Below are positions 2,546 to 39,510 of a DNA stretch of 64,000 nt, piece after piece. Position 1 is the first letter of the stretch. Each line of letters opens with the position of its first letter. Below the pieces are notes generated by a model that saw only the letters and a list, made by a program, of their open reading frames with translations, did not search any database and had not been told where the DNA came from. A program made the translations under genes and the position numbers. Origin of the DNA: Mustelus asterias (Eukaryota); NCBI RefSeq assembly GCF_964213995.1, contig NC_135806.1:42036001-42100000 (forward strand). Reading direction: 5' to 3'.

Positions 2546-2762
2546 TGATGTAGGGATGCCAGCGTTGGGGGCTATCTCCACTGGTGGGGTGGGCACAGTA
2601 AGAAGTCTCACAACACCAGGTTAAAGTCCAACAGGTTTATTTGGAATCATGTGCTTTCGGGGCGCTGCTCCTTCATCAGGTGGGTGGATGAAGCGCCTGA
2701 TGAAGGAGCAGCGCTCCGAAAGCTCTGTTGGACATGAACCTGGTGTTGTGAGACTTCTTACT
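2546..2762. mobile_element. Short palindromic Penelope-like (pLTR) insertion A
   Basis: Inverted arms bounded by AGTAAGAAG (2597) and CTTCTTACT (2762); tail on the left side only; flanks ATGATATGAAT/ATGATAAGAAT form a probable TSD. Confidence 0.8.
2694..2725 (+). ncRNA. Minimal hammerhead ribozyme motif (Penelope pLTR); 3' strand of helix I deleted
   Basis: CTGATGA-A-GGAGC/AGC/GCTCC-GAAA-GC-TC. Confidence 0.65.
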
Positions 2763-3074
2763 ATGATAAGAATGGACTAGGACACTACCCTGAGGAACTT
2801 CTGCAGTGATGATCTGGAATACAATGGATATTCATGGACGCACAGCCGGGACCATCACCCCATGTGCCTGCCACTGATTTAATCTCTAAATTTGAACCCA
2901 CCATTGGGAAAGCAAACATTCGGCTCCTGCCCAAAGTAATACCATTGTCGACTCCATAAAATCTCCCTCTCTCCACAGGCGCTGTTAAATCTTCTGAGAA
3001 TTTCCAGAATTTTCTCATTTAACTTCAGCTCACAACAGCCACTCAGTCTCAGAATAATCTCCGAGCAACCGCCA

Positions 3075-3420
3075 CCTGCCCGGGGGCGGGGCTGGTGCGG
3101 GGTCAGAGGGGGGGGCGGGGCCAGGAAAGCGACGGAGCGGGAATGGGGCGGGGCCGGAGGGCGACGGAGCGGGGAGGGGGCGGGGCCGGAGGGGGCGGGG
3201 CAGATGAGGCATGGGGCGGGGCCAGGAGAGCGACGGAGCGGGTCCGGAGGGGGCGGGGCGGGGCGGGTCCGGAGGGGGCGGGGCGGGGCCACGGGTCTCA
3301 GTTCCGATTGGATAGTGGCAAGTGGCGTCACTGGCGCGAGGCAGCCTTCTGATTGGAGCAAGGTGGTCATGTGAGAACGGGGTCAGCGGTCAGCAGCCGC
3401 ACTGTGGGGGCCGCCATGTT
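3075..3420 (+). promoter_or_regulatory. TOMM5 CpG-island promoter
   Basis: About ten GGGGCGGG GC-boxes, inverted CCAAT boxes (ATTGG at 3307 and 3352), a CGTCA half-CRE, and YY1 consensus CCGCCATGTT overlapping the ATG. Confidence 0.85.
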
Positions 3421-3536
3421 CAGGATGGAGGCGCTGGGGCCGAAGATGGATCCGGAGGAGATGCGGAAAAAGATGCGGGCCGATGTGCTGCGCTCCGTCC
3501 GCAACTTCTTCATTTACGTGGCCATCCTGCGGGCCA
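3416..3536 (+). CDS. TOMM5: TOMM5 coding exon 1 (mitochondrial import receptor subunit TOM5)
   Basis: Kozak GCCGCCATG; [40 protein letters not shown] closely matches vertebrate TOM5; phase-1 donor A|GTGAGT at 3537. Confidence 0.97.
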
Positions 3537-4106
3537 GTGAGTGTCGGGAGGAAGCGGGGAGGGGGGAAAATGGTTGGGAATTAGGAATCTGAGGTCATGG
3601 CTTCGTGCTCACGGTCACCGGGAAGCAGAGCAGCTGTCCCGGTCCCGGCAGCTGTACCGGCCCGGGCCCCTGTCCTGCAATGTCCAAACTACGAGAGTTG
3701 GGCCCGAGCAGCGATGCCTCCTCTCCCCCACCCACCCGGGGAGCGGGCATCGCACATGGGCGGCCAGTGAAGCAAATCAATCTCTGGGAGAGACTGCAGG
3801 AGCCGGCCACTCAGCCCTTCAAGCCTACTTTCCTATTCAATAAGATAATGTCTGATTGGTTTATGTTTCTAATTCTACATTCCCATCTACCCCTAATACC
3901 CCTACCACCTCTGCCTTAAAAATATTCAATGACCCCACTGTGTTCTGAGGTAGAGAGTTCCCAAGTCACACATCCCTCTGAGAAAAATTTCTGATCTGTC
4001 TTAAAAAGGTGACCCCTAATTTTAAAACAGTGCTGCTTAGTTTTGGGCTCTTTCACAAGAGGAAACATCCTTTCCATTCCACCTTATTAAGACCATACAG
4101 GATCTT

Positions 4107-4772
4107 AAGGTTAACGTGCAGGTTCAGTCGGCAGTTAGGAAGGTAAATGCAATGTTAGCATTCATGTTGACAGAGCTAGAATGCAAGAGCAGGGATGTAC
4201 TTCTGAGGCTGTATAAGGCTCTGGTTAGACCCCATTTGGAGTATTGTGAGCAGTTTTGGGCCCCATATATAAGGAAGGATGTGCTGGCCTTGGAAAGGGT
4301 CCAGAGGAGGTTCAAAAGAATGATCCCTGGAATGAAGAGCTTGTCGTATGAGGAACGGTTGAGGACTCTGGGTCTGTACTCGTTGGAGTTTAGAAAGATA
4401 TGGGGGGATATTATTGAAACTTACAGGATACTGTGGGGCCTGGATAGAGTGGACGTGGACAAGACGTTTCCACTCGTAGGAAAGACTAGAACCAGAGGGC
4501 AGAACCTCAGGCTAAAGGGACGAATCTTTCAAACAGAGATGAGGAGGAATTTCTTCAGCCAGAGAGTGGTGAATCTTTGCTGCAGAAGACTGTGGAGGCC
4601 AGGTCATTGAGTGTCTTTAAGACAGAGCTAGGTTCTTGATTAATAAGGGGGTCAAGGGTTATGGGGAAAAGGCAGGAGAATGGGGATGAGAAAAGTATCA
4701 GTCATGATTGAATGGTGGAGCAGACTTGATGGGCCAAGTGGCCTAATTCTGCTCCTATGTCTTATGGTCTTT
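4107..4772 (+). mobile_element. CR1 LINE 3' fragment inserted in an older antisense CR1 remnant (TOMM5 intron)
   Basis: ORF 4116..4610 contains LYKALVRPHLEYCEQFWAP...; minus-strand CR1 pieces lie on both sides. Confidence 0.9.
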
Positions 4773-4887
4773 TATACTTCACAAATCACCCCTCATTCTT
4801 CTAAGCTCCAATGGAAACAAGCCCAACCTGTTCAACATGCCCTCATAAGACAACCCACTCATTCTTGATATCAATCTAGTAAACCTA

Positions 4888-5165
4888 TGGGTGGCACAGT
4901 GGTTAGTACTGTTGCCTCTCAGCACCAGGGACCCAGGTTCGATTCTGGCTTGGGTCATTGTCTGTGCGGAGTCTGCACATTTTCCCCATGTCTGCATGGG
5001 TTTCCTCCCACAGTTTGAAAGACATGCTAATTAGGTGCATTGACCATGCTAAATTCTCCCTCAGTGTATCTGAACAGGTGTCGGAGTGTGGCGTCTAGGG
5101 GATTTTCGCAGTAACTTCATTGCACTGTTAATGTAATGCTACTTGTGACACTAATGAATAAACTT
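4888..5165 (+). mobile_element. HE1-headed SINE with alternative tail (also ~10035-10328 and ~43410-43692 on the minus strand)
   Basis: Same tRNA-like head as HE1, followed by CTAGGGGATTTTC...GTAACTTCATTGCA...AATAAACTTTAA. Confidence 0.75.
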
Positions 5166-5254
5166 TAAACCCCTCTGAACTGTCTCCAATGCATTTATAT
5201 CCTTTCTTAAATAAAGAGACTAACACTGCACCCAATATTTGAGAATCCAGTTTT

Positions 5255-5748
5255 GACCTTGGGTGTGTGGAGTTTGCATATTCTCCTCGTGCCTGCGTGA
5301 TTTTCCTCTGGGTGTTCTGGTTTCCACCCACAGTCCAAAGATGTGCAGGTTAGGTGGATTAGCCATGGTAAATACTTAGGGATTATGGGGATAGGGCAGA
5401 GGGGAGGGCCTGGGTGGAATGCTCTTTTGGAGAATCATAGAATCCCTACAGTGCAGAAGGAGACCATTCGGCCCATCAAGTCTGCACCGACCACAATCCC
5501 ACCCACGCCCTATTCCCGTAACCCCACATATTTACCCTGCTAAGTCCCCTGACACGAGGGTCAAGTTAGCATTGCCAATCAGCCTAACCCGAACATCTTT
5601 GGAGTGTGGGAGGTAACCGGAGCACCTGGAAGAAACCCATGCAGACATGGGAGAATGTGCAAACTCCAGACAGACAGTGACCTGAGGCTGGAATTGAACC
5701 CAGGTCCCTGGTGGTGTGAAGCAGCAGTGCTAACCACTGTGCTGCCCT
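5255..5748. mobile_element. Two HE1-like SINE copies in opposite orientation (5255-5420 +, 5435-5748 -)
   Basis: The SINE body is seen on + and then as its reverse complement immediately downstream. Confidence 0.8.
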
Positions 5749-6314
5749 GGTGCAGACTTGATGACTGATTGGCATCAACATAGCCCTGTATAGCTGAAGC
5801 ATAACTTTTTTTTAATGTTCAATTCCTTTTGTAATAAAGGATAGCATTCCGTTAGCTGCCTTAATTGCTTGTGCGTATACACTAACTTTTTGTGACTCAT
5901 GCTAGCAACACCTACATCCCTCTGCGCCTCTGAATTCTGCAGTTGTTCTCCATTTAAGTAACACTCGGTTTCTTTTATTCTTCCTGCCAAAGTGAACAAA
6001 TTCAGATTTTCCCACAACCACCAGATGTTTGCCCATTTACTCAACCTATTTATATCCAACCTCCTTATGTCCCCATCACAACATATTATCCTACCTTTGT
6101 GTCATCTGCAAATTTAGCTACTGTATGCCCCTCATCTATGTCATAAATATATAATTTGCGAAAAGAGGCCCCAGTACAGACTCCTGTGGATCTCCACTCG
6201 TGATATATTACCATCAAAAAAACACCCATTTTTCTGCCAGCCAGCCAATCATCTACTCATGCTGATATGTTAACCCTGACACAATGAGCTTTCATTTTCC
6301 ACAATAACCTTGGA

Positions 6315-7330
6315 TGTACTGTGACTGTGTGGAGTTCCCCACAACAGATGTAGAGAGAGAGAGACTGTTCCAGGCTTGAGAGACGAGGAGAGATGAGCTG
6401 TACCCGGATAGAGAGAGTGGAGGAGAGGTAGGCTGTACTAGTTTAGGGGCACAGAAAGAAGAGAGAGAGACTGTACTGTGACAGAGAGAAGGGGATGAGC
6501 GATGCTTCACTGGGAGAGACTCTATTGGGACAGAGAGAGGGGGGTGAGCAATGCTGTACAGGGAGGCTGTAGTGGGACAGAGAGAGTTGGTGAGAGAGGC
6601 TCTATTGGGAGAGAAGGATAGAGACAGTAAGAGTTTTAACAGGTTAAAGTCCAACAGATTTATTTGGTAGCAAATACCATTAGCTTTCGGAGCGCTGCTC
6701 CTTTGTCAGATGGAGTGAAAATCTGCTCTCAAACAGGGCACAGAGACACAAAATCAAGTTACAGAATACTGATTAGAATGCGAATTCTAATCAGTATTCT
6801 GTAACTTGATTTTGTGTCTTTGTGCCCTGTTTGAGAGCAGATTTCCACTCCATCGGACGAAGGAGCAGGGCCCTGAAAGCTAATGGTATTTGCTACCAAA
6901 TAAACCTGTTGGACTTTAACCTGGTGTTGTTAAAACTCTTACTGTATTTACCCCAGTCCAACGCCGGCATCTCCACACCAGGATAGAGAGACAGAGGTGG
7001 GGTGGAGAGCCTGTATCGGGATAGAAAAACAAGGGGAGAGGGAGAGTGTACCAGGATAGAGATGCCTGCGGTGATGTGGGATGATGGGGGGGGAGGGCAG
7101 CCTCTACTGGGATAGGGAGAGAGTTGGTGAGAGGCGCTGTACCAGGATAGAGAGAGAGGGAGAATATACTGGGGAAAGAGGCACTGCACTTTGGTAGATT
7201 GTGGGCTGAGGAGTTGGGAGTGCAGAGAGATGGATTGGTGGAGGGCAGCTGCACTGGGGACATAATCAGAGGTCATGTATGGCTGTATTGGGAAGAATTG
7301 GGGCATCTTCTGGAATAGATCCCATGTGTA
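6315..7330 (+). repeat. Degenerate GA-rich minisatellite (unit like CTGTACTGGGATAGAGAGAG...) split by Penelope insertion B
   Basis: Recurrent CTGTAC/CTCTA + GGGA(T/C)AGAGAGAG units on both sides of 6625-6980. Confidence 0.7.
6624..6978. mobile_element. Palindromic Penelope-like insertion B (TOMM5 intron)
   Basis: Arms of ~155 bp around a centre near 6780; tail CCCCAGTCCAACGCCGGCATCTCCAC on the right only; GGATAGAGA on both flanks; hammerhead motifs at 6677-6713(-) and 6850-6886(+). Confidence 0.88.
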
Positions 7331-7953
7331 GACTTTACTGGGGTATGGGGGAAACATCTTGAGCTAAAGCTGCAATACATTTGGTGTGGGGAGGGGTGTT
7401 GTAGGTTTGCTAACATTTTGGGATTTCTGATCTTTTTCCTGTGACCCTGAAAGGGTCGATGTTTCTAGTTGAGCCTCCCAGTCAGAAGTGCTAGGAAGTG
7501 TTATCTTCCCTCCACTACTCCATACAGTTCAGAAATTGAATGTAGCATAAATCAGTCCCTCAGCCACAGCAATGTCACTCCTATTACAAACTGAGAGACC
7601 AGATGTAATGTGTACAAAAGTCTCAACAATTTCTCTTGTATTATTTTGCTTGACATCGATAATCAAATCTTCTAACAGAGATTCAGTTGATTTACCGTAG
7701 CACTGAGCAAATCCCCATTGGCTTTTTGATGTTTTTATGGCTTTTTTATTTTCATGTACAAGTATTGAGGCAAGAAGGTCCAAATGCAAGTATTTTTAAT
7801 AAATAAAGGCTATTGGAGCTTGCATGTCTGTTAATGTATCTAAACTCAACCAGCCTACTTTCACATCGTAATTCTCTCCAGTACATATTTATGATGCCCT
7901 TTACAAATTGCTTTAATCTGCAAATTATATTAAATGATGAATTTGTTTTCCAG

Positions 7954-7988
7954 CTCCATTTATCCTAATGAAACTGGATAGTATTTGA
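7954..7988 (+). CDS. TOMM5: TOMM5 coding exon 2
   Basis: Acceptor TTTGTTTTCCAG; the spliced frame gives TPFILMKLDSI-TGA (human TPFILKKLDSI); total 51 aa. Confidence 0.97.
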
Positions 7989-8981
7989 ACTTCGCTGCCC
8001 GCAGAGATCAGCATGGTGCAGGACAATCATCAAGCCGTACTTGATCCTCGTTGGTACAGAATGATAAAATGAATGTGGACAATTGGGAATCATAGTGCTG
8101 CGAAGAAATGGATCATTTAAACTCAGCTAAAGGACAAACTATCAACCCTCAACATATTAGAAACTCTTCTGCCTATGGAACTGGATTAATTGCTGGTTAT
8201 GCTTATCTCACATTGACCATTCCCCGTGTTATTTCATACAAGGACTCTGTTGTTTTGTGATTGTTTTACACCACAGATTCGCTGCATGCACTAACGTGTC
8301 AGTGTGCAAAACAAAACCTGTGTTTATAACACTTTTTGTCTGCCCTGAGTGTGAACCTGATCCACAATCCACCTGATTTTGAGATCAGCTGAATTCCCTC
8401 CTTTCTGGGGAATCGTGTAGGAATTGCAGTATTTGATAACTGTGCCTCAGTGACACAAAACTAATATTTTGAACCTGTAAGGAGTACATGACTGAAAAAG
8501 ATATGAGATACTTGCTATACCTCCAGGCTTGAGGGGTGCAGTGTAAGAAATGACACGAAGCAGTGATACTTTCCCCCCTGTGAGTTTAGTTGACGTTTTT
8601 TCACTAGATTTGCTTTAATAATTGGATTTGCACAAAAAAATCAATTTTCATATTGGATTATCTATTAAAACTATTGATAATTTTTCATTTGGTCTGATTA
8701 AAGATTACAAAATCTCATGTTACTTGCACTGATGTAAAGGTCACAACTCTGATTTCAAAGTTTTTTCTTAAGCCACTTGTTACATTCTCCTTTACATTTT
8801 CATTCCTACTTTTTTTCTTTAATCTATCTAAATTGTAGTGTAACTTGCTGCTACATTTTGACCTTCCTCTGCCTTCCAAATATCTGTAAAAGCTTTAAAT
8901 TGTGCTGCACATCAGTGGTTTTCGTTGATTAATTTACTTTTATTGAACCGAGAGTGATAGTTGGATTATGTTCTTTTAAGC

Positions 8982-8987
8982 AATAAA
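8982..8987 (+). terminator. Candidate TOMM5 polyadenylation signal
   Basis: AATAAA ~1 kb after the stop, at the end of a repeat-free AT-rich 3' UTR-like stretch; ATTAAA variants also occur upstream. Confidence 0.45.
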
Positions 8988-13960: not shown

Positions 13961-15109
13961 CTTTTATTATTGAACAGTAACAAAGCAGACAGATTTATAG
14001 TAATAAGTAGACTTATCCAATTACTCTTCAGCGCCGGAAGCAGACAGTTCAGTGCCCTGTTTACTAGATTGATCCAGTAATTAGGTAACAAATAGAATAC
14101 CTAAATATGATGATATTTTTTGTAGGGTGCTGATATTTTTTGTAGGGTGTTGGTTATGGTTCGGTCGGTCTGAAGAAGTAATGATCATACGTTGGTTAAT
14201 TGAGTATTGACACTTCATATGCATATCCATATTAAATATGATGACTCTTAGAACTATTTACAAATATACAGTAGAGGGTACAAGCTAGGAACTGTCTCCA
14301 TACTTGCTCTTGATGCAAGTCGTGTGCTCTCCTACATCACTACGTGGGCCACGCTATACTCTAGCCCACATTAACGTTATATATGCCAGACCCTTGTGCT
14401 ACAATATTATGATTCTTCCCTTTAAATTGAGACAAAGATTTAACTGTTACAAGACATGGGAATGTCACCCCGTATAATGGAATGCTAATATTGTGGCTGA
14501 GTTAAAGAGCCACAGCAAAATCTGCTCCTAAATCAACTGGGTTCCCAAACCACTACTGACATCCCAACTGCATGCAACTCTGTTAGTCCAACGCCAGCAT
14601 CTCCACATCATGGTAAGATCAGACTCATTGCTTCCCATTGGTGATCAAATCATGGCCTGAGATCCTGGTGTCACATTGACTCAGAGTGGGAACACAACAG
14701 TCAAAAGATTCAGCTGGTCCATGTTCCATCCTGACCAGTGGATGATCCATGCTGAGTGAGTCCACAAGCTTTCGTATATTACAGCAGGTGGTGCTTCTCA
14801 TTAATCCTTTACTGGCCCCACAACACATGTTTCTCAGACATTATTGTTGTGGAAATTTGTCTGTGTAACCACAGGGGCACTATGGAGAATGCCAAGTCAT
14901 TTGATGTGTAAAGACAATCGGCCTTTTAATGAGGAAATCATTATTTTCCCAAACATTGCCCAACTGTTATTCAGGGTGACCACGACACATCCTGCTAGGC
15001 CACATAGACAAACAAAGTCTCTTTTGCAGATGCTAGAAGCAGTTAAGCTGAATTACCAGTTTTTGATGACCTGACTGCTGAGGTGGAAAGTGTATCAGAT
15101 TATTGTATA

Positions 15110-21480: not shown

Positions 21481-24044
21481 AAGGCACTTGTTGGTGCCAT
21501 GGTAACTGTTACTGTTACTCCATTTCCGTTGTTAGGAACCAGTGGGCCACTGGGAATGATGGTTGTTCTGTCCTCTGTGCAACCAGTGAGATCCCATCTT
21601 CCTGATTGGCCACTTGCAATGAAGGAACTGCCTAATTGTTTGTATATCCTTGTGGTTTCATTGGTATATTTGGTAATTGACCTCCAACACATTAAATCAA
21701 GGTGACAACTGCTCTACACATGTCCCAAGTTGCAATGTGGGCCAACTCCTGTTGAGAGCATTGAAGGTTTATACTCTGATTGACTTTCCAATGCTCACAT
21801 CTGGCAATGATTTGGCAATTTTGTCAAAATGAAATGTGGTTTTCTGCCCCTTCACTTTGATATTTTTACTCATGCCTGTTATTACTTCTGGTTTCAGTAG
21901 CTTTTTTGCTGCTGGAAGAATAGTTTGGGTGCAACATGACATTAATCTTTGGACTGGACTACTTTCCATACCTTCACTCAATGTGTTTCTCCATTCAAGG
22001 ATTGCTTTGTGTACATCAATGCCAGGCTTGCTTGAGTTCCTTGATGATTTATTTGACGATTGTTGTGAGGTCTTTTCAGAAACTTCAGGTAATACAAAGA
22101 CTCACGGAGTCAGTGTCTCGGTTAAAGATGTATCTTTATTTAACCAACAATCGATGGGAGAGATTAGCATTGGGCAGTCCAATGCCTTTCTAGAAGAGAA
22201 GGCCTTGAACATTCCAACACCACTCTGAAGTTACAATGTATCAAGACAGATCAATTACACATTTCCCAAATGTTACTTTCCCGCCCATCCAGTAGTTATG
22301 AACCAGTCATCATTAGTACAAATCAATCTATGTGCATAATTAGTGTCTTAATTACCTGATTATTTGAAATTTCTCTAACCTACTATGAATTTCTCCAACA
22401 GCGATTTTCACTGCCACTTCAGCCTTTCCATTTGATTGGCAATAGTGCAAAGTTATGTTTAGTGTTTAATTTTCCAATACTTTGTGAAGCAGCTGGTTTC
22501 TTCATGTGTGGACTGAGGGCCAATGTCACTCATCACAATATCTGAAATGCCACAATGACCGAAGTGTGCTTTCAAGCATTCTACTATCTCTCCTGTCATT
22601 CTTGAGGTCAGCTGGTCTACGTCCCACTAGTCAGTGACAAGATAATCAATTCTTGCTACAGTGAAGAGGTTTGGGATGTCATACGTCACCAACAGTCGTC
22701 TAGTTGTTTAGTTTGGTGCTGGATAAGAGCACTGTACTGGTCAAGGTGGTCTTTAATTTCATTAATCATGTTTGGCCAATAGAGCACTCTTCTTGCCTCC
22801 CTCAGACTCGATTCAATTCCTTGAGGTTTGCATGGATACACTTCAGCATCTCTCTCTCAACTCCTTAGGAATTATGACTCTTTCCTTTGTACAAGATGCC
22901 ATCTTGGGCTGTCAGTTCATCTCGATATGCTCAATATGCTCCTGTGACCACAGCTGTGTTCTTGATGCTTTTGGGTCATTATTTCATCACTACTTCTTGC
23001 AGCAGTTGGAGAGTTGTATCATGTTGGGTAGTTCACTTGATTTGTTCAAGGTGCTTGTCTGTCAGAATCAATGGTTGGGATTCTCCCAAAAAAACCTAAG
23101 TGCCCAACGGGCTGGAAAACGGGAGAATTTCCCACCTGTTTTTTGGGCGTACTTACCTGAATGGATCTCCAACACTCTGTGCATCACAGAGTGTCTCAGA
23201 GGGATTCACTGGAAAGGTGGGGGGAGCTCATCCCACTGGACAGGCCGGAGGAGAGTGCTGAGCGGCCACTGCGCATGCACCAATCTGTCAGTGGGGAGAT
23301 TGGCACATGCACACTGGCCGCCAACTCTCTCTACCACCCCTCCCCAACACCTCCCCCCCCAAACGCCCCACCCCCCCCCCCCCCAGTCTCCAACCTCCTA
23401 ATCACTGGCCTTCACTTTTAAAGATATCGCTGACATGAAAGAGGATAACAATCAAAAAACAAGCTGCAAGTTGTGACATTGGGATTCTTATACATGATAA
23501 TGAGTAAAATATCATGTTAGGGGTTAGATGTTGCTCAGAAATAAACTTCTGTTTATGACGATGTGCTTCTTTGAAAAGCAGATCGAGTGAGCAAAATAAA
23601 TCTTCCCAGGCCCTTCAGGGTGCCCCTTGGGCACTGCCAGGATGCCAGGCTGGCACTGCCCAAGGGGCAACCCCCTTGACACCGACTTCCATAGGGGCCT
23701 CAATGGCCTCTGTTCCCACCAGTGGTGGGAAGCAGTTGTAAACCCCGATGGTGGGACCTTTCCCAGTGAGGTGAGACGCTAGCAGGCCCAGAGAATACTG
23801 TCCTGGGCCCTAATCATATGGAAAATCATATACTAAAAATCATATGCTAAAACAATGGGCCAGAGGGACTCGCAATCGGCCGGACGCCAGTTACAAGTCC
23901 CTCTAAAAGCTGATGTTTCCCGGCCCGCTGCACTATTTGAGCAGTCATGATGTGGAGATGCTGGCGTTGGACTGGGGTAAACACAGTAAGAAGTTTAACA
24001 ATATCAGGTTAAAGTCGAACAGGTTTATTTGGTAGCAAAAGCCA

Positions 24045-24081
24045 CACAAGCTTTCGGAGCTCCAAGCCCCTTCTTCAGGTG
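24045..24081 (-). ncRNA. Minimal hammerhead ribozyme motif with intact core
   Basis: CAC-CTGAAGA-A-GGGGC/TTGGA/GCTCC-GAAA-GC-TT-GTG. Confidence 0.75.
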
Positions 24082-24578
24082 AGTGGGAATTCTGTTCACA
24101 AACAGGACATATAAAAACACAGACTCAATTTACATGAATAATGGTTGGAATGCAAATACTTACAGCTAATCAAGTCTTTAAGATACAAACAACGTGAGTG
24201 GAGAGAGCATCAAGACAGGCTAAAAAGATGTGTATTGTCTCCAGACAAGACAGCCAATGAAACTCTGCAGGTCCAGGCAGGCTGTGGGGGTCACAAATAG
24301 TGTGACATGAACCCAATATCCCGGTTGAGGACGGCCTCAACCGGGATATTGGGTTCATGTCACACTATTTGTAACCCCCACAGCCTGCCTGGACCTGCAG
24401 AGTTTCACTGGCTGTCTTGTCTGGAGACAATACACATCTTTTTAGCCTGTCTTGATGCTCTCTCCACTCACGTTGTTTGTATCTTAAAGACTTGATTAGC
24501 TGTAAGTATTCGCATTCCAACCATTATTCATGTAAATTGAATCCGTGTCTTTATATGCCCTGTTTGTGAACAGAATTC

Positions 24579-24621
24579 CCACTCCTGAAGAAGGGGCTTG
24601 GAGCTCCGAAAGCTTGCGTGG
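24579..24621 (+). ncRNA. Minimal hammerhead ribozyme motif with intact core
   Basis: CCACTC-CTGAAGA-A-GGGGC/TTGGA/GCTCC-GAAA-GC-TT-GCGTGG. Confidence 0.72.
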
Positions 24622-27288
24622 CTTTTGCTACCAAATAAACCTGTTGGACTTTAACCTGGTGTTGTTAAACTTCTTACTATTTGAGCAGTGCAGCGAACTG
24701 GGAGAATCCCAGCCAATGTCTCTGCTGGGTTGATGAATTCCAGAGCATGAAGAGCTGCTATTTCATTTTGAACCTGGAAGATTTCACATTCTGTTGTAGC
24801 AGTTTCAACTTTCCCCGTGGTGGGTGCTGCTCTTGACAGCATGTCAGTGATATACATCTGTTTCCCTTGCTTGTATGTGGCATTCAGATGACACCTCTGT
24901 AAATGAAGTAGCATTCTTTCAAGCAGATATTAGCAGTTCAAGAAAAATGCTTTGAAATGGCTTCTGGTTGGGTTCCACTGTTACTTTCTCTCTCCTAAGC
25001 TGGTAGTGATGAAAATGCTGACAAGCAAAAACAACAGCCAGGCACTCTTTCTTGATCTGAGCAGAGCATCGCTCAGTTTGCCTTAATTCCCTGGATACAA
25101 ATGCAGCTAGCTGTCCTTGCTGCATTAGGGATGTTCCAAGACCTGTCTCACTGGTATCACACTGCAAGGTGACTTCATTGATGTCATAGCACTTCACACA
25201 GTCACCAGTTGTTTGATTTTAGTGAAAGCTGCTTCTTATTCTATGCCCCAATACCACAGCACATCCTTGGCAGTGAGCTTCTGTAATGGTTCACACTCTG
25301 ACAACAAATTCGACAAAAGGTTTGCTAAATCATTCACAAATCCAACACATCGTTGGTTGCTACGTTGCTGCTATGGCTCTCACCATGTCAGGATCTGGGC
25401 AAAGACCTTTTTCTGTCAGTGCATAATCTATGTACTTGACTTTGGGCATCTTCAATTGCAATTTTAGTCTTGCTTAGCTTCTGGCTCATCTGGTGAGCTC
25501 TCTCTAGCAGTCGTATTAAATTCAGATCATGGTCAGCAATGGTTTCTTCCATTGTGTCTCCACATCCATAGACTTGCAGATCATCCACTAAGGTTTCCAC
25601 TTCAAAATGATGACTGACTATCTCATGCTGTCCACATTGATTCTTCTGGAGCCATAGAAATGCCAAACAGCATGCACAACAATGCATATCTCGCAAACAG
25701 CATCCAAAATATAATTAGAAAGCTGCTGCTTTCATCCAGCTTCACTTTCTAGCAACCATCCTCCTCACCTTGTGTAGTAAAGATCTTTGCCTTGGCAGGT
25801 TGTGGCAAAATTGCTCCGGTAGTTGGCATGGGGTAATGAGATCTCTTCAACACTATTCTGATCTTTTGGATCCAGGCATACTCTCAGCTTCGATCTCACG
25901 GCTACCATGCTGCTAACCCAACCTGTCGGAGTTGTCACTTTTTAAAATTACTCCCCTCTTTTCGAGCTCTTCAGTCTTGTTTCTTAGCCTTGAATTTAGG
26001 GCAGCTGGAACTCTTCTCGGCAGATGCTGAATTAGTCTGATACTTTCATCTACCTTGAGATGATACTCTCCCAAGTAGACACCCAAACTCTGTAAACACA
26101 TCTTTTAGGATCTGTTCAGCAGACAATGGTTGTGTGTGCTGTGACACATTGTAAATCTCTGTTGGCATGTTTAGGGTTACCAGTCCAAGCTTCAGAGTTG
26201 CTCCAGCTGAGATGAGTCATTGTGTACTGTCTATGATTTGGAACTCCAGATCTTTATTCTTGCCATTGCTTTGGCCTCTCAGACTAAATTGTCCTCCCAG
26301 TATGAGTATTACATCATCATATAGCCTCAATCCTACTTTTGAGAGCTTCATTTTTGGATCACCATATTGTGCCACTTTGCACAGGTCTGTGAAGGTCATG
26401 ATGTCGCAAAGGTGACCAGGCTACAAAGGCCATTTTTAATTCAAAGTTTGAAGCAGTTGGAAATTTAATTGCTGCCCCCATTTTGGGCCACCCTCTCATT
26501 CTGCCTTCCCCACTGCAGCTTTCAAGCTGGAAAGCTTCTGATTGTCCCTCCTGCTTTGTGAGCCCACCTGCGGTCCTTAGTTGGACAGCAAGCCGTTCTC
26601 TATCCATTAATTGACCGTTCCAGGGAAAATCACATTTAGGGATTATTCCCCACATAGTGTGGGCTTCTAACTGACAATTGAACCTGATAACAGAATTCAG
26701 AAAGCAACAGGACAAAATTTGCCCTGTACTCCTGCATATGCTTATGGGGTCCCACCACCCCCTCGGCCCTGCTCAGATCCACCTCCTCCGTGGACCTGCC
26801 CATCCTTCTCTGGCCTGCCCGGATCCCCCTCCTTTTTGGATCTGCTCTTTCTCCTCGGGCCCACTTGGACCTCTACCTCCCTCAGATCTGCCAGACCAAC
26901 CCCACCTCAGGTTTGTCCAGTCCTCTCCATATTAGGTCTCCCCTTACCTTCCAACTGAGCCTACCACAAGGACTGCAATACAGGAAGCCAAATTCTAGGA
27001 AAATTCCCAGATGGTTGGTGTCTGAGCTGTACTCATCCAGGCAAGTAGAAAGTGTGCCATCACATTCCTGATTCATGCCTTGCAGAATGTGAATAGGCTA
27101 TGGGAGTCAGGAAGTGAGTTATTCACCAGAGTTTCCAGCTTCCCCACTCTTGTAGCCACAGTACTTACTATAAATACAGTGATCAAATGTCATGTGATCA
27201 AGCAGTACAGGAATGGTACCAATGATCAACTAAACTACCTGTGTCACGTGATCAAATCTCCAACAAAATAACTAACCAGAATTGGCAA

Positions 27289-27295
<7 letters not shown>

Positions 27296-27329: not shown

Positions 27330-27330
<1 letters not shown>

Positions 27331-29642: not shown

Positions 29643-30796
29643 GTTTTTTTATTCATTCGTGAGACATGGGCGTCGCTGGCTGACCAGCATTATTGCCCAT
29701 CCCTAGTTGTCCTTGAGAAGGTGGTGGTGAGCTGCCTTCTTGAAATGCTGCAGTCCACGTGCTGTGGGTTGACCCACAATGCTGGGAGGGAGGGAATTCC
29801 AGGATTTTGATCCAGTGACTGCAAAGGAAAGGTGATATATTTCCAAGTCAAGATAGTGAGTGGCTTGGAGGGGAACTTGCAGGTGGTGGTATTCCCATGT
29901 ATCTGCTGCCCTTGTCCTTCTATATTGAAGTGGTCGTGGGTTTGGAAGGTGCTGTCTAAGGATCTTTGGTGGATTGCTGCAGTGCATCTTGTAGATAGCA
30001 CACACTGCTGCTACTGAATGTCGGTGGTGGAGGAGTGGATATTTGTGGATGTGGTGCCAATCAAGCAGGCTGCTTTGTTCTGGATGGTGTCAAGCTTCTT
30101 GAGTGTTGTTGGAGCTGCACTCATCCAGGCAAGTAGGGAGTATGCCATCACATTCCTGACTTGTGCCTTTGTAGATGGTGGACAGCTTTGGGGAGCCAGG
30201 AGATGAATTATATGCCACAGTATTCCTAGGCTCTGACCTGCTCTTTTAGCCACTGAGTCCAATTGAGTTACTGGTCAATGGTAACCCCAAGAATGTTGAT
30301 AGTGGGGGATTCAGTGATGGTAACACCATTGAATGTCAAGAAGTGGTGGTTAGCGTGTCTCTTATTGGTGATGGTCATTTCCTGGCATTTGTGTGGCGCG
30401 TATGTTACTTGCCACTTGTCAGCCCAAGCCTGGATATTGTCCAGATCTTGCTGCATTTTAACATGGACTGCTTCAGTATCTGAGGAGTCGCAAATGGTGC
30501 TGAACATTGCGTAATCATCAACGAACATCCCCACTTCTGACCTTATGACGGAGGAAAGGTCATTGATGAAGCAGCTGAAGATGGTTGAGTCTAGGACACT
30601 AGCCTGAGGACGTCCTGTAGAGATGTCCTGGAATTGAGATGACTGACCGTCCACAATCACAACCATTTTTCTATGTGCTAGGTATGACTCCAACCAGCAC
30701 AGAGTTTGCCACCTGATACCCATTGCTCTCAGTTTTGTTAGGGCTCCTTGATGCCATACTCGGTCAAATATGGCCTTGATGTCAAGGGCTGTCATG
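29643..30796 (-). mobile_element. CR1-group LINE 3' part (second family; another piece at ~1960-2222)
   Basis: RT motifs ALDIKAIFDRVWH, PQASVL, FVDD, WADKWQV; A-rich tail GAATGAATAAAAAA. Confidence 0.88.
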
Positions 30797-32754: not shown

Positions 32755-32920
32755 AAAGCAAAATACTGCAGATGCAGTAACAAAAACAAAAACTGCTGGA
32801 AAAGCTCAACAGGTCTGACAGCATCTGGGCAGAGAGAATAGGGAAAAGAAAGAACACGAAACATTGGCTCTATTCTCTCTCCACAGGTGCTGTCAGACCT
32901 GCTGAGATTTTCCAGCATTG
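32755..32920. repeat. Short inverted repeat of a second dispersed family (single arms at ~2965-3020, 48598-48650, 58170-58262)
   Basis: TGCTGGAAAAGCTCAACAGGTCTGACAGCATCTG...GAGAGAATAG versus CTATTCTCTCTCCACAGGTGCTGTCAGACCTGCTGAGATTTTCCAGCA. Confidence 0.75.
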
Positions 32921-33959
32921 CAGGATTGTGATGGAGTTTCTTGGATATCCATATCTTTGGAGCACAATCAACTGACTAAGCCTCATGATTTACTGAATCA
33001 AATGCTTTGGACAGGTCGATTAACGCAATGAAGAGTTCCTGGTGTTATCCTCAAGTTTTCTTGTGTTTGTTGCAACCAAGACTGTATTGGAGCTTTCTCT
33101 GGAAGGTCTAAAACAACACTGTGGCTGTCTGAGGTTTTTGGGGTCTCCCTTCCCACCATCCAAAGGGTTGGCAGGGAACACATCCCCGCTAATTCAGAGT
33201 TTCCCACAGACGATTTATGCTCAAATAAGCGTCAATTGGCTGTAGGCATCACTTCCATCTCTCTCACAAGAGGAGGTCCTGCCAATCCGATTGGCCGGCA
33301 GCTTTCACTGAAGTGGACAGAGAGGAAGTTCAGCAAGTGGTCGGAGCCAAAGTCTGGGGAGCAGAGGCCAAGGTAAGTTTAAGGGGTGCTAGGTGTGAAG
33401 AGTAGAAAAGGCCTGCCCCGGGGGGGGGGGGGGGGGGGGGGTGTTGTAGGAGGGGTTGGGGGAGAGCAAAGGGGATGATCAGGGTGACAGGGCGAGGCCA
33501 CTGAGGAAAGGGAGGTCCAGTGGCCACCAGACCTTAAGAGAGAGGGCACCGCCATTCAGAAGGGGGTTTCTAGTCGAGCCCTCCCACCCCCGTTCCTGCC
33601 CAAGATCTAGGCCCATGGATGTTTGGGTTTCCCCAAGTCCATCCCCCTGCCAGCCAAAAAATTGAAACGGGGTGGGAAATGGCAGTTAAGTAGCCAATAA
33701 TTGGCCACTTAAGGGTCTCAATTGAGACGAGGGTGGACTTGCCATCTGAGGCCTTGCCCAGCCTAGCATAGAATCGCTACCTGGTCGGAGTTGGGGGGAA
33801 ATCCAGAGGGAATCCAGTTCCTTCAATTTCACACTGCCCTACCCCACCTAAAAACCCACTGGTGGGAGAGAGTGAAATTCTGGCCAGTGTCTGGGAGTAT
33901 TTCCTCAGCCACAGGAAATAAGCAATTCAGGAGAATTGCTTTCTTGAAGACAGTTAAAA

Positions 33960-36030
33960 TTGTTGTGTTCTGAAATCAGGTGGGAGTTCTTTTCGCTCAA
34001 ATATCCATAACATGAGTGCATGGAATATTGAAGACCTCAGCTGGAATACCTTCAGGAATGCAGGCTTTGTTGTTCTTCATCTATTTGATTGCTTTGAGAG
34101 TGGATGACCCATGGATTTTACCACAAGGTACAGGGGGATAGCCTGGAGAATATCGGCTGTCATGCTTGGGGACCTGTTCAAAATGTTTTTTCCCGCATTG
34201 ACGGATGATATTGTCATCCTTAAGAAGAGAAACACAACCCTGAGAGCAAAGAGAATTTTGTCCATTTGACTTTGATCTAGAGATAATGGCCTTGGTAGTT
34301 TCAAAATGGCTTTGTATGTCATGACAGTCAACATATTGTTGGATCTCTCAGGCTTTCTCTTCCCACCATTTGTCCTTTATCTTCCAGAATTGTCTTTAGG
34401 TGTCAACCGTGAGCTGTTGGAATGCTGTCTTCTTGATTTGCGACCTTGGATTGACCTGCCAGGCATTGAAGGCTATTTGCTTTTGCTTCAGATTGCGGGG
34501 GGAGGGTCTTATATTTCAGCATCATTTTTATCGAATCAGTCCTGGTGACAATGATACTCAGACCCAATGGTCTCGATACAGGCATCTGTACAGCTGACTT
34601 ATTTGATTGCACTCTTCTGGAATTCAATTGGGTGTGTGGAAGTTTTCTCGGTCGATCGTGAACTTCCTTGGGAATTCCTCTCTTCAGTCGGATTGCTTTA
34701 GGGTTGAGAGATTGTTCTTTTTTTTGGACTTGCGATGTCTTGGTGCAAGGCAGATATTCATCACTGATCGAACAAGTTGATGATCTGTCCAGCAGGCATC
34801 AGTTCCCCACTTGGATTGAGGCATACGGACATCACTTAGCTCTTGCACCCGATCAATAAAATAATCCAGAAAGTGTCAATACTGCGATCTAGGATGTCTC
34901 TATATGGTTTGGTATTTATCCTTCTGGCAGAAGAGGGTGTTTGATATCATGAGGCCATAAGCTCACTTTGTCAACAGGGGGACTTCATTTGCATTGTTTC
35001 TTCCCACACAACTTTTTCCAAATGGTTCTGTTCCAGACATTAGGTCAAGGCCAACCCTGGGATTAAAGTCACTCAGAAGAATGATAATTTCTTCTGGGTT
35101 GGCAGTGAGGATTTCATCCTTCATTTATACAGTTGGGAAGTTCTGGCAGTACCTCCTAGATTCTATTCCAGGCAGCATAATCAACCTGGTGATCTTGAGA
35201 ATCGCTGTCAGCCTTTCCTTTTCAGTAGAAGTTGAATCCCCTTGCTTGTTCCTTCAGCTACCCCTACTTAGGAAGACATCTCACTGAGGGTGGTGATGTC
35301 AATTTGGAGTTTTGATAGTTTATGTGATACGACTGCACTTCTTCTTTCCAGACAGTCATTCTTGAGATTATTCATAAGTGTTCTAACATTCCAAGCTGGA
35401 AAGTTTAAAGTTTTCTTCCTTTGACCACAAAAAGCCCTGCAGAATGTGATTCCCCAGTCAGGCGAAAGCGGACAGCCTATCTTTAGGGCATCTTGCCCCA
35501 TCCCCACTGGGGTGAGTAGGAGGTATCCTGAAGAGAACTGCTCAGTCACAGATGTTGCTGCCCAAAGACACCTCTGTCCCAACACAGGCATCCAACCACC
35601 TTTATGTGTCTGTCTCCTGTATGCAGATTCTTTACTAGGGACTCCAAGGTTTACAGTCCTGTCCCCCATTGCCAATCCTCCAAAGACACAGGACTTGGCA
35701 TTTATAATAGACCCTGGTAGAAGCCTAGGCATGACTTTGTGTAATATGGGGACCTTGGGATGCCGATATTGTCCTCGAGACTTTGACAGGTTGGTGACTG
35801 GATTTTGGTGACATGCTAAATCACGATGACTGGGATCACGATGACTGGGACCACCAAACCTCCTTCCCCTGTTCTGCCATTGAGCACTTTTGGAATGCAT
35901 TTTGTCCAACACCTCCTCCTGACCTTGCTACCACGGGTGTCCCTGCAAGGAGCAAGGGGCTCCTGACAGCATCACTCAAAGGATCATTAGAGTGCACAAA
36001 TGTCCATCATGTCAAGCCAACAACCCACGG
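33960..36030 (-). mobile_element. RTE-clade LINE, 5' portion (5' region, AP endonuclease, linker)
   Basis: LNFPAWNVRTL...ERRSAVVSHKL..LQIDI..LSE is the RTE endonuclease N-terminus; further degraded ORF pieces lie downstream. Confidence 0.8.
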
Positions 36031-37027
36031 TAAAGTTCCAGAGCCTGGGGCTTAGATGACTGAAATCAAAACTACCAATGGTGGGACAAAGTGAGGAGGG
36101 ATTCACAGGAGGCCAGAGTCTGAATCATGGAGGGTTCAGGAGAAGTTGTAGAGCTGGAACAGGTTTGGAAGAGATGAAGCCATAAAGTGAATTAAGCACA
36201 AGGATGTAAGTGTTATTTTGGAGACATTGGTGGAGTGGATATTGCACACACAAATGAAACATAAGCAAGATCTGGTGCTTGATAGGATAACGGCAGCAGT
36301 GTTTAGGTTGAACTGAAGTTTACAGAGGGTGAAGGAGAGCTAGGGGAGCCTTGGAATGCCACTTTTCTTTATACATTAGTTATAGTTGTGTTGGATAAGC
36401 AGAATTTCCATGGTGAATTACACTTCATAAAATGTCGCCCCATGAAAAAATAATTCATACTTCACATAATTCTTCCCAGAGGACTATCCTCTATTTGTAG
36501 CATGGAAATAAATCATTTCAGTCCACTGTGTGAAGTAGTAAACAATGATTCACATGTGAAATATAGCATCTTTCCACAAACTACATAACAGTTAGCAGGC
36601 CACAATAGAATACCATAAATCCACTGGGAAAAATTGCAGGCTGAACATTCCCTGGGCTGTTTCAATGGGAGGTTCTCTAACCTGTTTAAAGGGTCACAGC
36701 CGGGCTGTTTACACATTTGAAAGTTGCTTGCTCTCGAGTTTAACCCAGTTAAGTTTAATATTGTGCCTATGGATATGAATATTTTCTGTGTTGGGTGCTA
36801 CATCCTCATTTAATTCAATCAATAGTGAAGTGGGCTCCTGGCCTGTCTTGGTGAAGGGACTCACCTGAAATCTGAATCAACTTTCTCTATTAAATGCTAA
36901 GTCAACTGCTGTGCATTTAAATTTTTCTGTTTTTATTCCAGATTCTGTCGGTTAGCACTGCAAACCAGGATTGAAATTGCACCACAAGAATTGTCAGCTT
37001 TTAAAAACGCCCATGTTTATGTCTTAA

Positions 37028-39510
37028 AGTAAGAAGTCTCACAACACCAGGTTAAAGTCCAACAGGTTTAGTTGGTAGCGCTGCCCCTTCATCAGGTGAG
37101 TGAAGAATTAGGTTCACAAACAGGGCATATATAGACACAAACTCAATTACAAATAATGATTGGAATGCAAATCTTAACAGGTAATCAAGTCTTTACAGGT
37201 GCAGACAATGCAAGTGGAGAGAGGGTTAAGCACAGGTTAAAGAGGTGTGAATTGTCTCAAGCCAGGACAGTTAGTGAGATTTTGCAAGTCCAAGCAAGTC
37301 GTGAGGGTTACAGATAGTGTGACATGAACCCAAGATCCCGGTTGAGGCCATCCTCATGTGTGCGGAACTTGGCTATCAGTTTCTGCTTGGCAATTCTGCA
37401 TTGTCGTGTGTCTTGAAGGCCACCTTGGAGAACACTTACCCGAAGATCAGAGGCTGAATGCCCTTGACTGCTGAAGTATTCCCTGACAGGAAGGGAACAC
37501 TCCTGCCTGGTGATTGTCGAGCGGTGTTCATTCATTCATTGTCGCAGCGTCTGCATGGTCTCGCCAATGTACCATGCCTCAGGACATCCTTTCCTGCAGC
37601 GTATCAGGTAGACAATGTTGGCCGAGTTGCAAGAGTAGGTACCGTGTACCTGTTGGATGGTGTTCTCACGTGAGATGATGGCATCCACGTCGATGATCCA
37701 GTACATCTTGCAGAGGCTGCTGTGGCAGGGTTATGTGTTGTTGTGGTCACTGTTCTCCTGAAGGCTGGGTAGTTTGCTGCAGACAATGGTAGGTTTGAGG
37801 TTGCGTGGCTGTTTGAAGGAAAGTAGTGGGGCTGTGGGGATGGCCTTGGCGAGATGTTCGTCTTCACCGATGACATGTTGAAGGCTCTGGAGAAGATGTC
37901 ATAGCTTCTCCGCTCCAGGGAAGTACTGGATGACGAAGGGTATTCTGTCCGCCGTGTCCCGTGTTTGCCTTCTGAGGAGGTCAGTGCGGTTTTTCGCTGT
38001 GGCACGTCGGAACTGTCAATCGATGAGTCGAGCATCATATCCTGTTCTTACGGGGGCATCTTTCAGTGTCTGGAGGTGTCTGTTGTGATCCTCCTCATTT
38101 GAGCAGATCCTGTGTATACAGAGGGCTTGTCCATAGGGGATGGCTTCTTTAACGTGTTTAGGGTGGAAGCAGGAGAAGTGGAGCATCGTGAGGTTATCTG
38201 TGGGCTTGCGGTACAGTGAAGTGCGGAGGTGACTGTCCTTGATGGAGATGTGTGTGTCCAAGAATGCAACCAATTCTGGAGAGTAGTCCATGGTGAGTCT
38301 GATGGTGGGATGGAACTTGTTGATGTCATCATATACTTGTTTCAGTGTTCACCGTGAGTCCAAAAGGAAGAAAATGTCATTGATGTATCTAGTGTATTGC
38401 GTCGGTTGAAGGTCCTGTGCAGTGAAGAGGTCTTATTTGAACTTGTGCATGAAGATATTGGCATATTGAGGTGCGAATTTGGTCCCCATGGCTGTTCCAT
38501 GTGTCTGGATGAAGACCTCCTCAGAAGACAAACATGGAACACGGTGGACAGAGTATCCTTTGTCGTCCAGTACTTCCCCAGAGCGGAGAAGCTACGACAT
38601 CTTCTCCGGAGCCTTCAACATGTCATCGATGAAGACATGTTGAACATCTCGCCAAGGCCATCCCCACAACCCCACTACTTGCCTTCAAACAACCGCGCAA
38701 CCTCAAACAGACCATTCTACGCAGTAAACTACTCAGCCTTCAGGAGAACAGTGACCACGACACCACACAACCCTGCCACAGCAACCTCTGCAAGACGTGC
38801 TGGATCATCGACACGGATGCCATCATCTCACGTGAGAACACCATCCAACAGATACATGGCACATACTCTTGCAACTCGGCCAATGCTGTCTGCCTGATAC
38901 GCTGCAGGAAAGGATGTCCTGAGGCATGGTACATTGGTGAGACCATGCAGACACTACAACAACAAATGAATGGACACCACTCGACGATCACCAGGCAGGA
39001 ATGTTCCCTTCCTGTTGAGGAACACCTCAGCAGTCAAGGGCATTGAGCCTCTGATCTTCGGCTAAGTGTTCTTCAAGACACATGACAACGCAGAATCGCT
39101 GAGCAGAAATTGATAGCCAAGTTCCGCACACATGAGGACGGCCTCAACTGGGATCTTGGGTTCATGTCACACAATCTGTAACCCTCACGACTTGCCTGGG
39201 CTTACAAAATCTCACTAACCGTCCTGGCCTGAGACAATTCACATCTCTTTAACCGGTGCTTAACCCTCTCTCCATTCATTGTCTGCAACTGCAAAGACTT
39301 GATTACCTGTTAAGACTCGCATTCCAACCATTATCTTGTAATTGAGTTTGTGTCTATATATGCCCTGTTTGTGAACCCAATTCTTCACTCACCTGATGAA
39401 GGGGCAGTGCTCCGGAAGCTTGTGTTACCAAATAAACATGTTGGACTTTAACCTGGTGCTGTGAGACTTCTTACTGTGTCTACCCCAGTCCAATGCCAGC
39501 ATCTCCACAT
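37028..39510. mobile_element. Large two-armed Penelope-like element D (RT C-terminal part + GIY-YIG)
   Basis: Minus arm: FLDTHISIKD..TSLYRKPTD..LHFSCFHPKHVKEAIPYGQA (RT). GIY-YIG region (WYIGET) in both arms. Arms of ~960 bp (37028-37985 and 38513-39475); tail on the right only; flanks TATGTCTTAA/TATGTTTTAA. Confidence 0.93.
39390..39424 (+). ncRNA. Hammerhead motif with one core substitution (GGAA for GAAA)
   Basis: CAC-CTGATGA-A-GGGGC/AGT/GCTCC-GGAA-GC-TT-GTG. Confidence 0.6.

Follow-up and report, generated by a model that had tools for sequence, protein, structure and literature searches.

Inverted insertions of Penelope-like elements (PLEs) that carry one tail and lie within a single target-site duplication (TSD) have already been published, for Pen2 and Pen2a of Adineta vaga (PMC3846280) and as a general scheme (PMC8557442). 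In the portions of these papers available to us, Pen2/Pen2a units combine an inverted 5'-truncated copy, a tail of 30-40 bases at one end, one duplication round the unit and palindromes at the junction (PMC3846280). The duplication length of EN+ PLEs is described there as variable and ascribed to a second nick after target-primed reverse transcription (TPRT) (PMC3846280, PMC8557442). The general scheme likewise holds that this nick follows cDNA synthesis and sets the variable duplication, and it names the origin of inverted one-tailed insertions as an open question (PMC8557442). According to the available text on PAc, a Poseidon element of Anolis carolinensis, both strands are cut and extended in vitro, two internal reverse transcription (RT) start sites bound the tail, the protein is a predicted dimer and a hammerhead lies upstream of the start sites (PMC11167929). 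We compared these systems with a PLE family of Mustelus asterias, starting from insertions in one 64-kb stretch of its genome (hereafter the window).

Two further kinds of system resemble this family in part. In LINE-1 twin priming, both cut strands prime RT, the inverted product lies inside one duplication and microhomology is found at the priming sites; the internal site used by the second primer varies, and each arm is copied from a different part of the RNA. Dimeric interrupted-palindrome cutters, and DDE integrases with a palindromic target consensus, act on dyad sites with a fixed stagger and leave near-constant duplications. Our literature search found no paper on twin priming in Penelope elements, and none reporting that PLE targets are symmetric or that duplications follow a 12-base rule.

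Four insertions in the window (A-D), which an earlier note had reported, are all present where it placed them and are genuine truncated copies of a Neptune-type PLE (Table 1). As described there, each consists of two inverted arms; we measured arm identities over ungapped columns of 66/70 (A), 153/164 (B), 333/344 (C) and 858/941 (D). One arm ends at or beside CTTACT (2762, 6626, 24678 and 37028, respectively) and the other carries a tail, although that of A is broken by an insertion. The tail-less arm of D is indeed the longer one. A duplication flanks every unit, but the uniform length of 9-11 bp claimed for it did not hold; that of C is 11 if its last three bases are assigned to the element. 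We additionally identified a fifth insertion, E, which was absent from the earlier note and consists of a single arm. A 17-base core of the element has 11 matches in the window at ≤3 mismatches, against 0.28 expected, and nine of the 11 are element arms. Genome-wide, the element core has about 190,000 exact matches, and the young units are represented by about 9,500 motif matches.

Table 1. Insertions of the PLE family in the window, with positions counted from its first base.
Feature	Position	Strand	Remarks
A: 8-base duplication	left copy 2534..2541, right copy 2761-2768	.	right copy overlaps final two bases of CTTACT
A: tailed arm	2546..2689	-	tail 2546-2596, split by insertion; predicted hammerhead-type motif 2653-2679
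A: tail-less arm	2696..2762	+	17-base deletion; predicted hammerhead-type motif 2697-2723
B: 10-base duplication	left copy 6615..6624, right copy 6980-6989	.	
B: tail-less arm	6625..6779	-	
B: tailed arm	6784..6979	+	CTTACT ends 6943; tail 6944-6979
Tail-only fragment, same family	14585..14612	+	without resolved partner or duplication
C: duplication, maximal 14	left 23932..23945, right 24676-24689	.	12-base core within TG-N16-CA
C: tailed arm	23946..24330	-	tail 23946-23984; predicted hammerhead-type motif 24050-24078
C: tail-less arm	24335..24678	+	predicted hammerhead-type motif 24585-24613; reach equals tailed arm; junction is a short element palindrome
D: 11-base duplication, one mismatch	left 37017..37027, right 39510-39520	.	
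D: tail-less arm	37028..38518	-	about 1490 bases: decayed RT-end/linker/GIY-YIG coding region and 3' UTR
D: tailed arm	38514..39509	+	about 960 bases plus tail; CTTACT ends 39475; 5-base microhomology with other arm
E: single tail-less arm	42940..43030	-	duplication and TG-N16-CA read by eye; one copy short by one base

The copies in the window have been truncated and have decayed. The protein was read from a young copy elsewhere in the genome (L163:5915-8563), which has a natural open frame of 883 aa. This frame contains an RT domain (RVT_1, E-value of 3.7e-10, above cut-off) and, at its C-terminal end, an endonuclease of the GIY-YIG type (PF01541, E-value of 2.5e-5, 24.9 bits against a cut-off of 22.6). 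A CCHH motif could be read from the translation, with its two cysteines flanked by the GIY- and YIG-like motifs and both histidines lying downstream. In an AlphaFold model of the protein (pLDDT of 91.8), the six top Foldseek matches were all TERT structures. The RT thus appears most like telomerase RT, judged by structure matches rather than a tree; a sequence search for a solved PLE protein structure found none. Prediction of a dimer from two copies of residues 1-250 scored 0.47, compared to 0.36 for one control, and speaks neither for nor against dimerisation. The linker between RT and endonuclease carries CX4CxxC ahead of the GIY-YIG domain, in line with the CX2-5CxxC that characterises Neptune/Nematis. 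We therefore place the family by its linker in Neptune/Nematis, taken undivided, its homologues being unnamed or 'uncharacterized'. Relatives in turtles are about 43% identical. The Penelope/Poseidon clade, which requires the absence of this linker, was rejected.

Outside the coding region, the core and tail continue into an ORF start in one locus (L082), so the tail represents the beginning of the following tandem unit, as in a pLTR organisation. No full pLTR-ORF-pLTR tandem was recovered. A predicted minimal hammerhead-type motif (CUGANGA-stem II-GAAA) was found in the arms of A and C. An Rfam search returned no hammerhead match, only hairpin look-alikes due to the palindrome, and the last 140 nt of the element fold no better than shuffled sequences (z -0.22).

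To follow the layout beyond the window, we tabulated tail side and TSDs in genome samples, as the earlier note had suggested. One tailed and one tail-less end within one TSD were found in 99/99 two-armed, TSD-bounded units, comprising 59/59 in a mixed-age set (set 1) and 40/40 in an independent young set, both filtered for duplications of at least 10 bases. Among these 99 there was no tail/tail or tail-less/tail-less unit. Of the window units, only C and D are part of the 59, as the script scored A as tail-less/tail-less and lost the left arm of B through a 6-base deletion. Without the duplication filter, 69/75 and 45/46 adjacent outward pairs followed the one-tail rule, and in a third sample, 39 tail-selected loci processed with a crude script, 1/26 partners was tailed. 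The available descriptions of EN+ PLE units, by contrast, speak of a tail that is 'optional' or 'often' one-sided. Among 20 unpaired young arms, nine tail-less and three tailed arms had a duplication but no partner, and in five cases all that remained of the tailed arm was a stump of 5-73 bases. Because single arms of either kind and stumps keep the duplication, the formation of one end does not require a copy of the other.

The insertions share a target. A dyad in which TG-NN and NN-CA enclose 12 bp (TG-N16-CA) was found at 69/99 units: 37/59 in set 1 (29/50 once look-alike flanks were removed), against a background of 2.6%, and 32/40 in the young set. The signal was weaker in the crudely processed third sample of 39 tail-selected loci (6/14 duplications). 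Where the maximal repeat was exactly 12, both half-sites were present at 18/18 young and 12/17 mixed-age sites, compared to 0.56% per position. Since single sites hold both half-sites (18/18), the symmetry is more than a population average. The duplication core measured 12 in 34/36 cases, with a penalty of 1.5 bits placed on 13 in the 12-versus-13 calls. The spacing between TG and CA is not rigid, as TG-N17-CA occurs at 12/59 and 5/40 units and N14 is seen at a SINE hot spot. Among A-D, the full motif is present only in C, and D is without it; no symmetric target site had been described in the earlier note. Published EN+ PLE duplications, as far as the available sources describe them, are 8-10 bases long, whereas those of the M. 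asterias family are mostly 12 with a symmetric motif over both flanks. Neptune-type linkers have been linked to microsatellite targeting, a tendency rather than a defining trait in the part of the source available (PMC8557442). The sites found here are a spaced dyad in mixed sequence, with no microsatellite insertion bias.

We also looked at where the arms start. Arm ends fall in two windows in young copies, -4..+4 and +34..+41. The two defined 3' registers proposed in the earlier note thus stand, but its fixed endpoints are windows of 8-9 nt. Microhomology exceeded expectation at the tail-less junction (1.66 vs 0.65 and 0.92 vs 0.47 in the two sets) and at the tailed junction (0.98 vs 0.38 and 1.22 vs 0.42), with ≤1/5000 permutations reaching the observed values. 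Together with the 99 one-tail units and the duplication-bearing single arms of either kind, this excess supports the suggestion that both cut strands prime RT at two registers. Within a unit, the two start positions were not correlated (rho 0.06; -0.17), and no fixed distance between them was found. While the layout itself is published, our searches turned up no published account of the one-tail rule, the dyad target, the junction microhomology at both ends, the ability of either end to stand alone, or the equal reach and common source of arm pairs described next.

In about half of the pairs, the two arms stop at nearly the same base, and both derive from one source. Equal reach (within 17 nt) was observed in 19/42 pairs, compared to a null of 2.1 (max 8), with a median difference of 0. 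A longer tail-less arm, as in D, is not the rule: it was longer in 13 of the 42 pairs and shorter in 10. Divergence was 0.11% between the arms of a unit vs 0.22% between units, a 77-base indel was concordant between arms in 20/20 units, and a subfamily marker in 40/40 against 0.34 expected. Arms from different subfamilies, which would have spoken against the earlier note, were not seen in either marker test. Arms of the same source are what one RNA and two RNAs of one locus would yield alike. Equal-reach units are short (median of 257, vs 748 for the longer arm in unequal units), which is also compatible with trimming down to the shorter arm. The RNA just upstream of equal stops was slightly more structured in a post hoc comparison (-5.57 vs -3.98, p 0.005).

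Taken together, we consider it probable that each unit is one truncated Neptune-type PLE insertion, usually inside TG-N16-CA, made by two-ended TPRT. The GIY-YIG domains of a likely protein dimer would nick both strands in concert, 12 (sometimes 13) bases apart and in each case two bases 5' of CA(G). The resulting 3' ends may then each pair through 0-4 bases with the element RNA, one at a priming site near CTTACT and the other about 37 nt further downstream, where the next tandem unit has its start codon. Both sites are probably on a single RNA, as each site is usable only once per molecule. The two cDNAs would often finish at the same template position and be joined head to head through end-joining repair, while abortion of one cDNA would leave a single arm or a tail stump. 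There was no clear pile-up of stumps at the tail-less site (eight are scattered over -28..+12) and no leader/trailer length bias; a roadblock on one RNA might have produced both, and their absence counts against this reading. A bolder version, which we put forward tentatively, takes the enzyme as a dimeric interrupted-palindrome cutter that breaks TG-N16-CA in a concerted manner, with a stagger of 12 nt. Each cut strand would have its own start, 37 nt from the other, and a single RNA would be copied twice at once. On this view, every Penelope-type insertion would normally yield the inverted one-tailed unit, and a single arm would mark an aborted event.

Two-ended TPRT would differ from the known systems in several respects. 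The arms overlap, fewer than 40 nt separate the starts of the two primers, and a 9-nt window contains the second start, which upholds the contrast with LINE-1 twin priming drawn earlier. Compared to dimeric cutters and DDE integrases, a GIY-YIG domain is here coupled to RT and the cuts would serve as primers. PAc offers a parallel in its cut and extended strands, start sites and predicted dimer, and in its hammerhead if the predicted motif of our family is one. However, the available text on PAc describes a Poseidon-clade element without the CX2-5CxxC linker, an AT-rich ATT cleavage preference rather than TG-N16-CA, start sites said to be without homology to the cut DNA, where we find microhomology, and start sites 111-118 nt into the ORF, where our distal site is at the start codon; it does not report the pairing of both start sites within one insertion or the spacing of paired cuts (PMC11167929).

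Equal reach might instead arise if a cDNA snapped back and copied itself, or if a joined unequal pair lost its loop, which would make the second arm a DNA copy and equal reach a repair product. This fits the 19/42 pairs ending within 17 nt, the tiny palindromes or palindromic fillers at some junctions (L209, L225, C) and a length of equal-reach units like that of the shorter arm, and self-priming was proposed from junction palindromes in the available part of PMC3846280. As the sole mechanism, however, it conflicts with the tail-less arm being much longer in 13/42 pairs, near-identical young copies included (3030 vs 254), and with the duplication being kept where only a tail-less arm is present and where the tailed arm is reduced to a stump of 5-73 bases. 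Length differences also lie on both sides of zero, hairpin energy of the cDNA is ordinary at equal junctions (-2.79 vs -2.56, sd 1.70), 8/19 equal junctions contain insertions and there is no increase of the equal share with age (14/24 vs 18/29). Variants private to a unit and common to both arms numbered two in equal and one in unequal units, too few to serve as a fold-back test. We regard such trimming as unlikely to be the explanation, though it may add to two-ended priming.

The RNA dimer put forward in the earlier note appears more doubtful still. Here, two element RNAs, perhaps paired via the self-complementary stem III of minimal hammerheads, would each be copied from one cut end. The predicted hammerhead-type motif in the arms counts in its favour, since type I hammerhead motifs work as dimers (PMC6155905), as do arms unequal in both directions (23/42) and a LINE-like 3' piece at the junction in 2/59 units. 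Yet a symmetric pair of RNAs leaves the single tail of every unit unexplained, independent RNAs would not share a unique stop base in 19/42 pairs, and subfamily-discordant pairs numbered zero in 40 and 20 tests. Time-synchronous stopping predicts an offset of +37, but only 2/42 pairs differ by +25..+50. In vitro, ribozyme mutants leave insertion unchanged, according to the available text of PMC11167929. The data thus do not call for an RNA dimer and are fitted better by one template, given the lack of tail/tail and tail-less/tail-less units, the one-source arms and same-base ends far above chance. That the units are adjacent separate insertions or assembly fold-back artefacts is highly improbable. 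In set 1, 6/75 adjacent outward pairs were neither one-tailed nor flanked by a duplication, which shows that adjacent copies are in some cases separate insertions. In the units, by contrast, both arms share one enclosing duplication, the difference between the two ends is fixed, the arms have diverged by 0-14%, the flanks are unique on both sides and the target motif spans both of them; the layout is also published for other animals.

The number of core matches, the near-identical young copies, the natural open frame and the dyad target together make a two-ended mechanism testable. For this, our analysis supplies TG-N16-CA as a substrate, predicts where the nicks and the two start windows lie, and provides a sharp pairing rule. 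The dyad-target reading would also account for insertion hot spots in other repeats and for a steady supply of palindromes in the genome.

The four inverted two-armed insertions of the Penelope-like family in the window (A to D) are present where the earlier note had placed them, and in each one arm ends at or beside CTTACT while the opposite arm carries the tail, as it had described. Its flanking duplications of 9–11 bp held for B (10) and D (11, with one mismatch), but A has 8 and C a maximal 14. In A and C, the element's final two or three bases double as the opening bases of the duplication.

Insertions and fragments of the Penelope-like family in the window, and units elsewhere that share one host-repeat site
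Feature	Position	Arm-to-arm identity (ungapped columns)	Remarks
A, two-armed unit	2546–2762	66/70
B, two-armed unit	6624–6978	153/164
Tail-only fragment	14585–14612		no core
C, two-armed unit	23946–24678	333/344	the only one of A–D with the full TG-N16-CA motif
D, two-armed unit	37028–39510	858/941
Fifth insertion, single tail-less arm	42940–43030		duplication and target (TG-N16-CA) both judged by eye
Insertions at the dyad of a presumed CR1-like LINE	G000:C1 units 68582, 348407, 402532, 1970211, 2067485; L216, L222

By the definitions in the sections of PMC8557442 covered here, the element is, judging from its sequence, of the Neptune/Nematis type of Penelope-like elements. The predicted fold of its protein is nearest to telomerase RT, and the named homologues are shark proteins (81–94%) and turtle proteins (about 43%). 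Exact matches in the 3.68-Gb genome number 189,956 for its 24-base core, 53,528 for a 33-base subfamily motif and 9,522 for a young-subfamily motif. The tail corresponds to the first part of the following tandem unit, up to that unit's start codon (locus L082). Some 60 nt upstream of CTTACT there is a minimal hammerhead-type motif, on which Rfam made no call. The youngest subfamily is marked by a duplication-like insert of 77 bases at the end of the ORF (L163 near 8550–8630; 16 of 20 units tested).

Other family copies were sampled in three sets, all biased to well-kept copies and mostly from one contig. Set 1 (967,420 bases) started from the first 100 plus-strand core matches on contig C1, with 80 of the 86 regions planned for them, and also took in the window with 100-kb flanks. 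It yielded 199 arms from 201 anchors, one false match and the left arm of B being dropped. Set 2 (young) consisted of 57 regions with young-subfamily motif sites absent from set 1, and set 3 of 39 tail-selected 3-kb loci.

Arm end positions in set 1 were bimodal. All two-armed units flanked by a duplication of at least 10 bases had one tailed and one tail-less arm (59/59 in set 1, 40/40 in set 2), and the side of the tail varied (32/27 and 21/19, respectively). Without the duplication filter, one-tail pairs made up 69/75 and 45/46; the pairs breaking the rule all lacked a duplication, one of them being A, whose tail is damaged. Partner arms in set 3 were tail-less in 25 of 26 cases. The last templated base in young units lay at −4 to +4 relative to CTTACT in the tail-less arm and at +34 to +41 in the tailed arm (35/36), with no correlation between the two positions.

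Empty target sites were reconstructed from the insertion flanks. The dyad TG-N16-CA was found in 37/59 set 1 sites (29/50 once look-alike flanks were removed) compared to a background of 2.6%, and other spacings occurred in 1–6/59 each, except for N17 at 12/59. The dyad was also present in 32/40 set 2 sites. Agreement was weaker in set 3, where a crude script found it in 6/14 sites, several of the remainder resembling N17 by eye, and in the window, where only C of A–D has the full motif. Among sites with a maximal repeat of exactly 12, whose register is thereby fixed, both half-sites were present in 18/18 young and 12/17 mixed-age sites, versus 0.56% per position. A profile trained on set 1 alone called a 12-base core in 34/36 young sites, with TG at 94–100% on either side, the register being picked among a few offsets and 13 penalised. 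The target rule is (C)TG-NN/N12/NN-CA(G), by which each nick would be placed two bases 5' of CA. A repeat that we take to be a tRNA-type SINE was hit recurrently (L176, L187, L190, L078) with a TG-N14-CA spacing, an exception to the 12-base rule; in these landings the tail-less end shows microhomology of 5–6 bases. Many independent insertions share one site in the coding region of what is presumably a CR1-like LINE, which carries a perfect CTG-N16-CAG dyad.

Both ends behave like primers: the opening bases of the duplication match the element's onward sequence above chance at both junctions (1.66 versus 0.65 and 0.98 versus 0.38 by chance in set 1; 0.92 versus 0.47 and 1.22 versus 0.42 in the young set). 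Arm lengths were correlated in set 1 (Spearman 0.92; 53/59 units, six with long spacers being dropped) and lay within 20% of each other in 36/53 units, versus 7.5 by permutation. Among 42 young units (seven from set 1; L179 dropped), arm pairs ended at most 17 nt apart in 19, versus 2.1 expected, and the median difference in this equal-reach class was 0. The tail-less arm was longer in 13 of the other units and shorter in 10, and only 2/42 fell at +25 to +50. Arms were joined by short microhomology, bluntly or with a small insertion in 6, 5 and 8 equal-reach and 8, 8 and 6 unequal units. Divergence between arms was 0.11% within units versus 0.22% between units. Arms were concordant in 20/20 indel and 40/40 subfamily tests, which excludes no more than a random pairing of arms drawn from a pool, as subfamilies may have differed in their time of activity.

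Eleven of 84 young arm 5' ends cluster at −86 to −101 from CTTACT, just 5' of the hammerhead core (L173, L184, L211, L214, L218, L202), and none lies at −106 to −147; the search motif needs arms of at least about 85 nt, hiding shorter ends. A LINE-like 3' piece, which may be a template jump or a later insertion, separates the arms of G000:C1 units 788582 (1439 bases) and 1970211 (379 bases), its 3' end adjoining one arm. In each arm of the small palindrome at L182:1193–1607, the ORF start is fused directly to position −120: both arms are copies of a derivative with an internal deletion, and at the centre of the palindrome the ORF-start ends are unequal. At L209:1045–1380 and G000:C1:1475764, the family is inserted in or against its own sequence (nested or abutting).

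The consulted part of PMC3846280 describes inverted pLTRs, a 31-base tail on one of them and 9–10 base duplications, with self-priming inferred from palindromes at the junction. PMC8557442, as far as covered, gives the same inverted-pLTR scheme, the tail often being at a single end only, and ascribes variable duplications to a second nick that follows the first later and at a variable distance from it. In the excerpts used of PMC11167929, a Poseidon protein, predicted to dimerise, cleaves and extends both strands in vitro, with two internal start sites bounding the tail. By these accounts, the inverted one-tailed layout and the two start sites are already known, so that the earlier note's layout, and most of its mechanism of both cut strands priming reverse transcription at two registers, possibly on an RNA dimer, were anticipated. 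Literature searches, together with passages of PMC8969392, PMC12910113, PMC6155905 and bioRxiv 10.64898/2026.07.22.740005 and term searches of the PMC8557442 supplement table and the PMC11167929 supplement, turned up neither a dyad target with its mostly 12-base duplication nor the strict pairing or the equal-reach statistics, older subscription papers and Repbase being outside their scope.

A large role for fold-back, with a cDNA snapping back or being trimmed when the arms are joined, seems unlikely but deserves weight, as it also accounts for equal reach centred on zero; equal-reach units are short, and palindromes occur in a few of the junction fillers. Of 20 unpaired young arms that we examined, nine tail-less ones have a duplication but lack a partner (one with a 24-base filler), three tailed ones have a duplication (as does a fourth, judged by eye), five keep a stump of the tailed arm (5, 14, 32, 67 or 73 bases) and two are of undecided type. 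Fold-back on a tailed cDNA therefore cannot account for every tail-less arm. Two RNAs, one per arm, are improbable, since a symmetric RNA pair would yield tail/tail and tail-less/tail-less units, against the strict one-of-each rule, and an artefact is hardly credible.

We consider two-ended priming on one RNA the probable mechanism. The symmetric site and near-constant stagger suggest two endonuclease domains at a fixed distance, which would cut both strands. The two RT start sites would be located at two places on one RNA, the simplest reading because free site choice, like a symmetric RNA pair, would break the one-tail rule. Both cDNAs would then run off the common template end, giving equal reach centred on zero.
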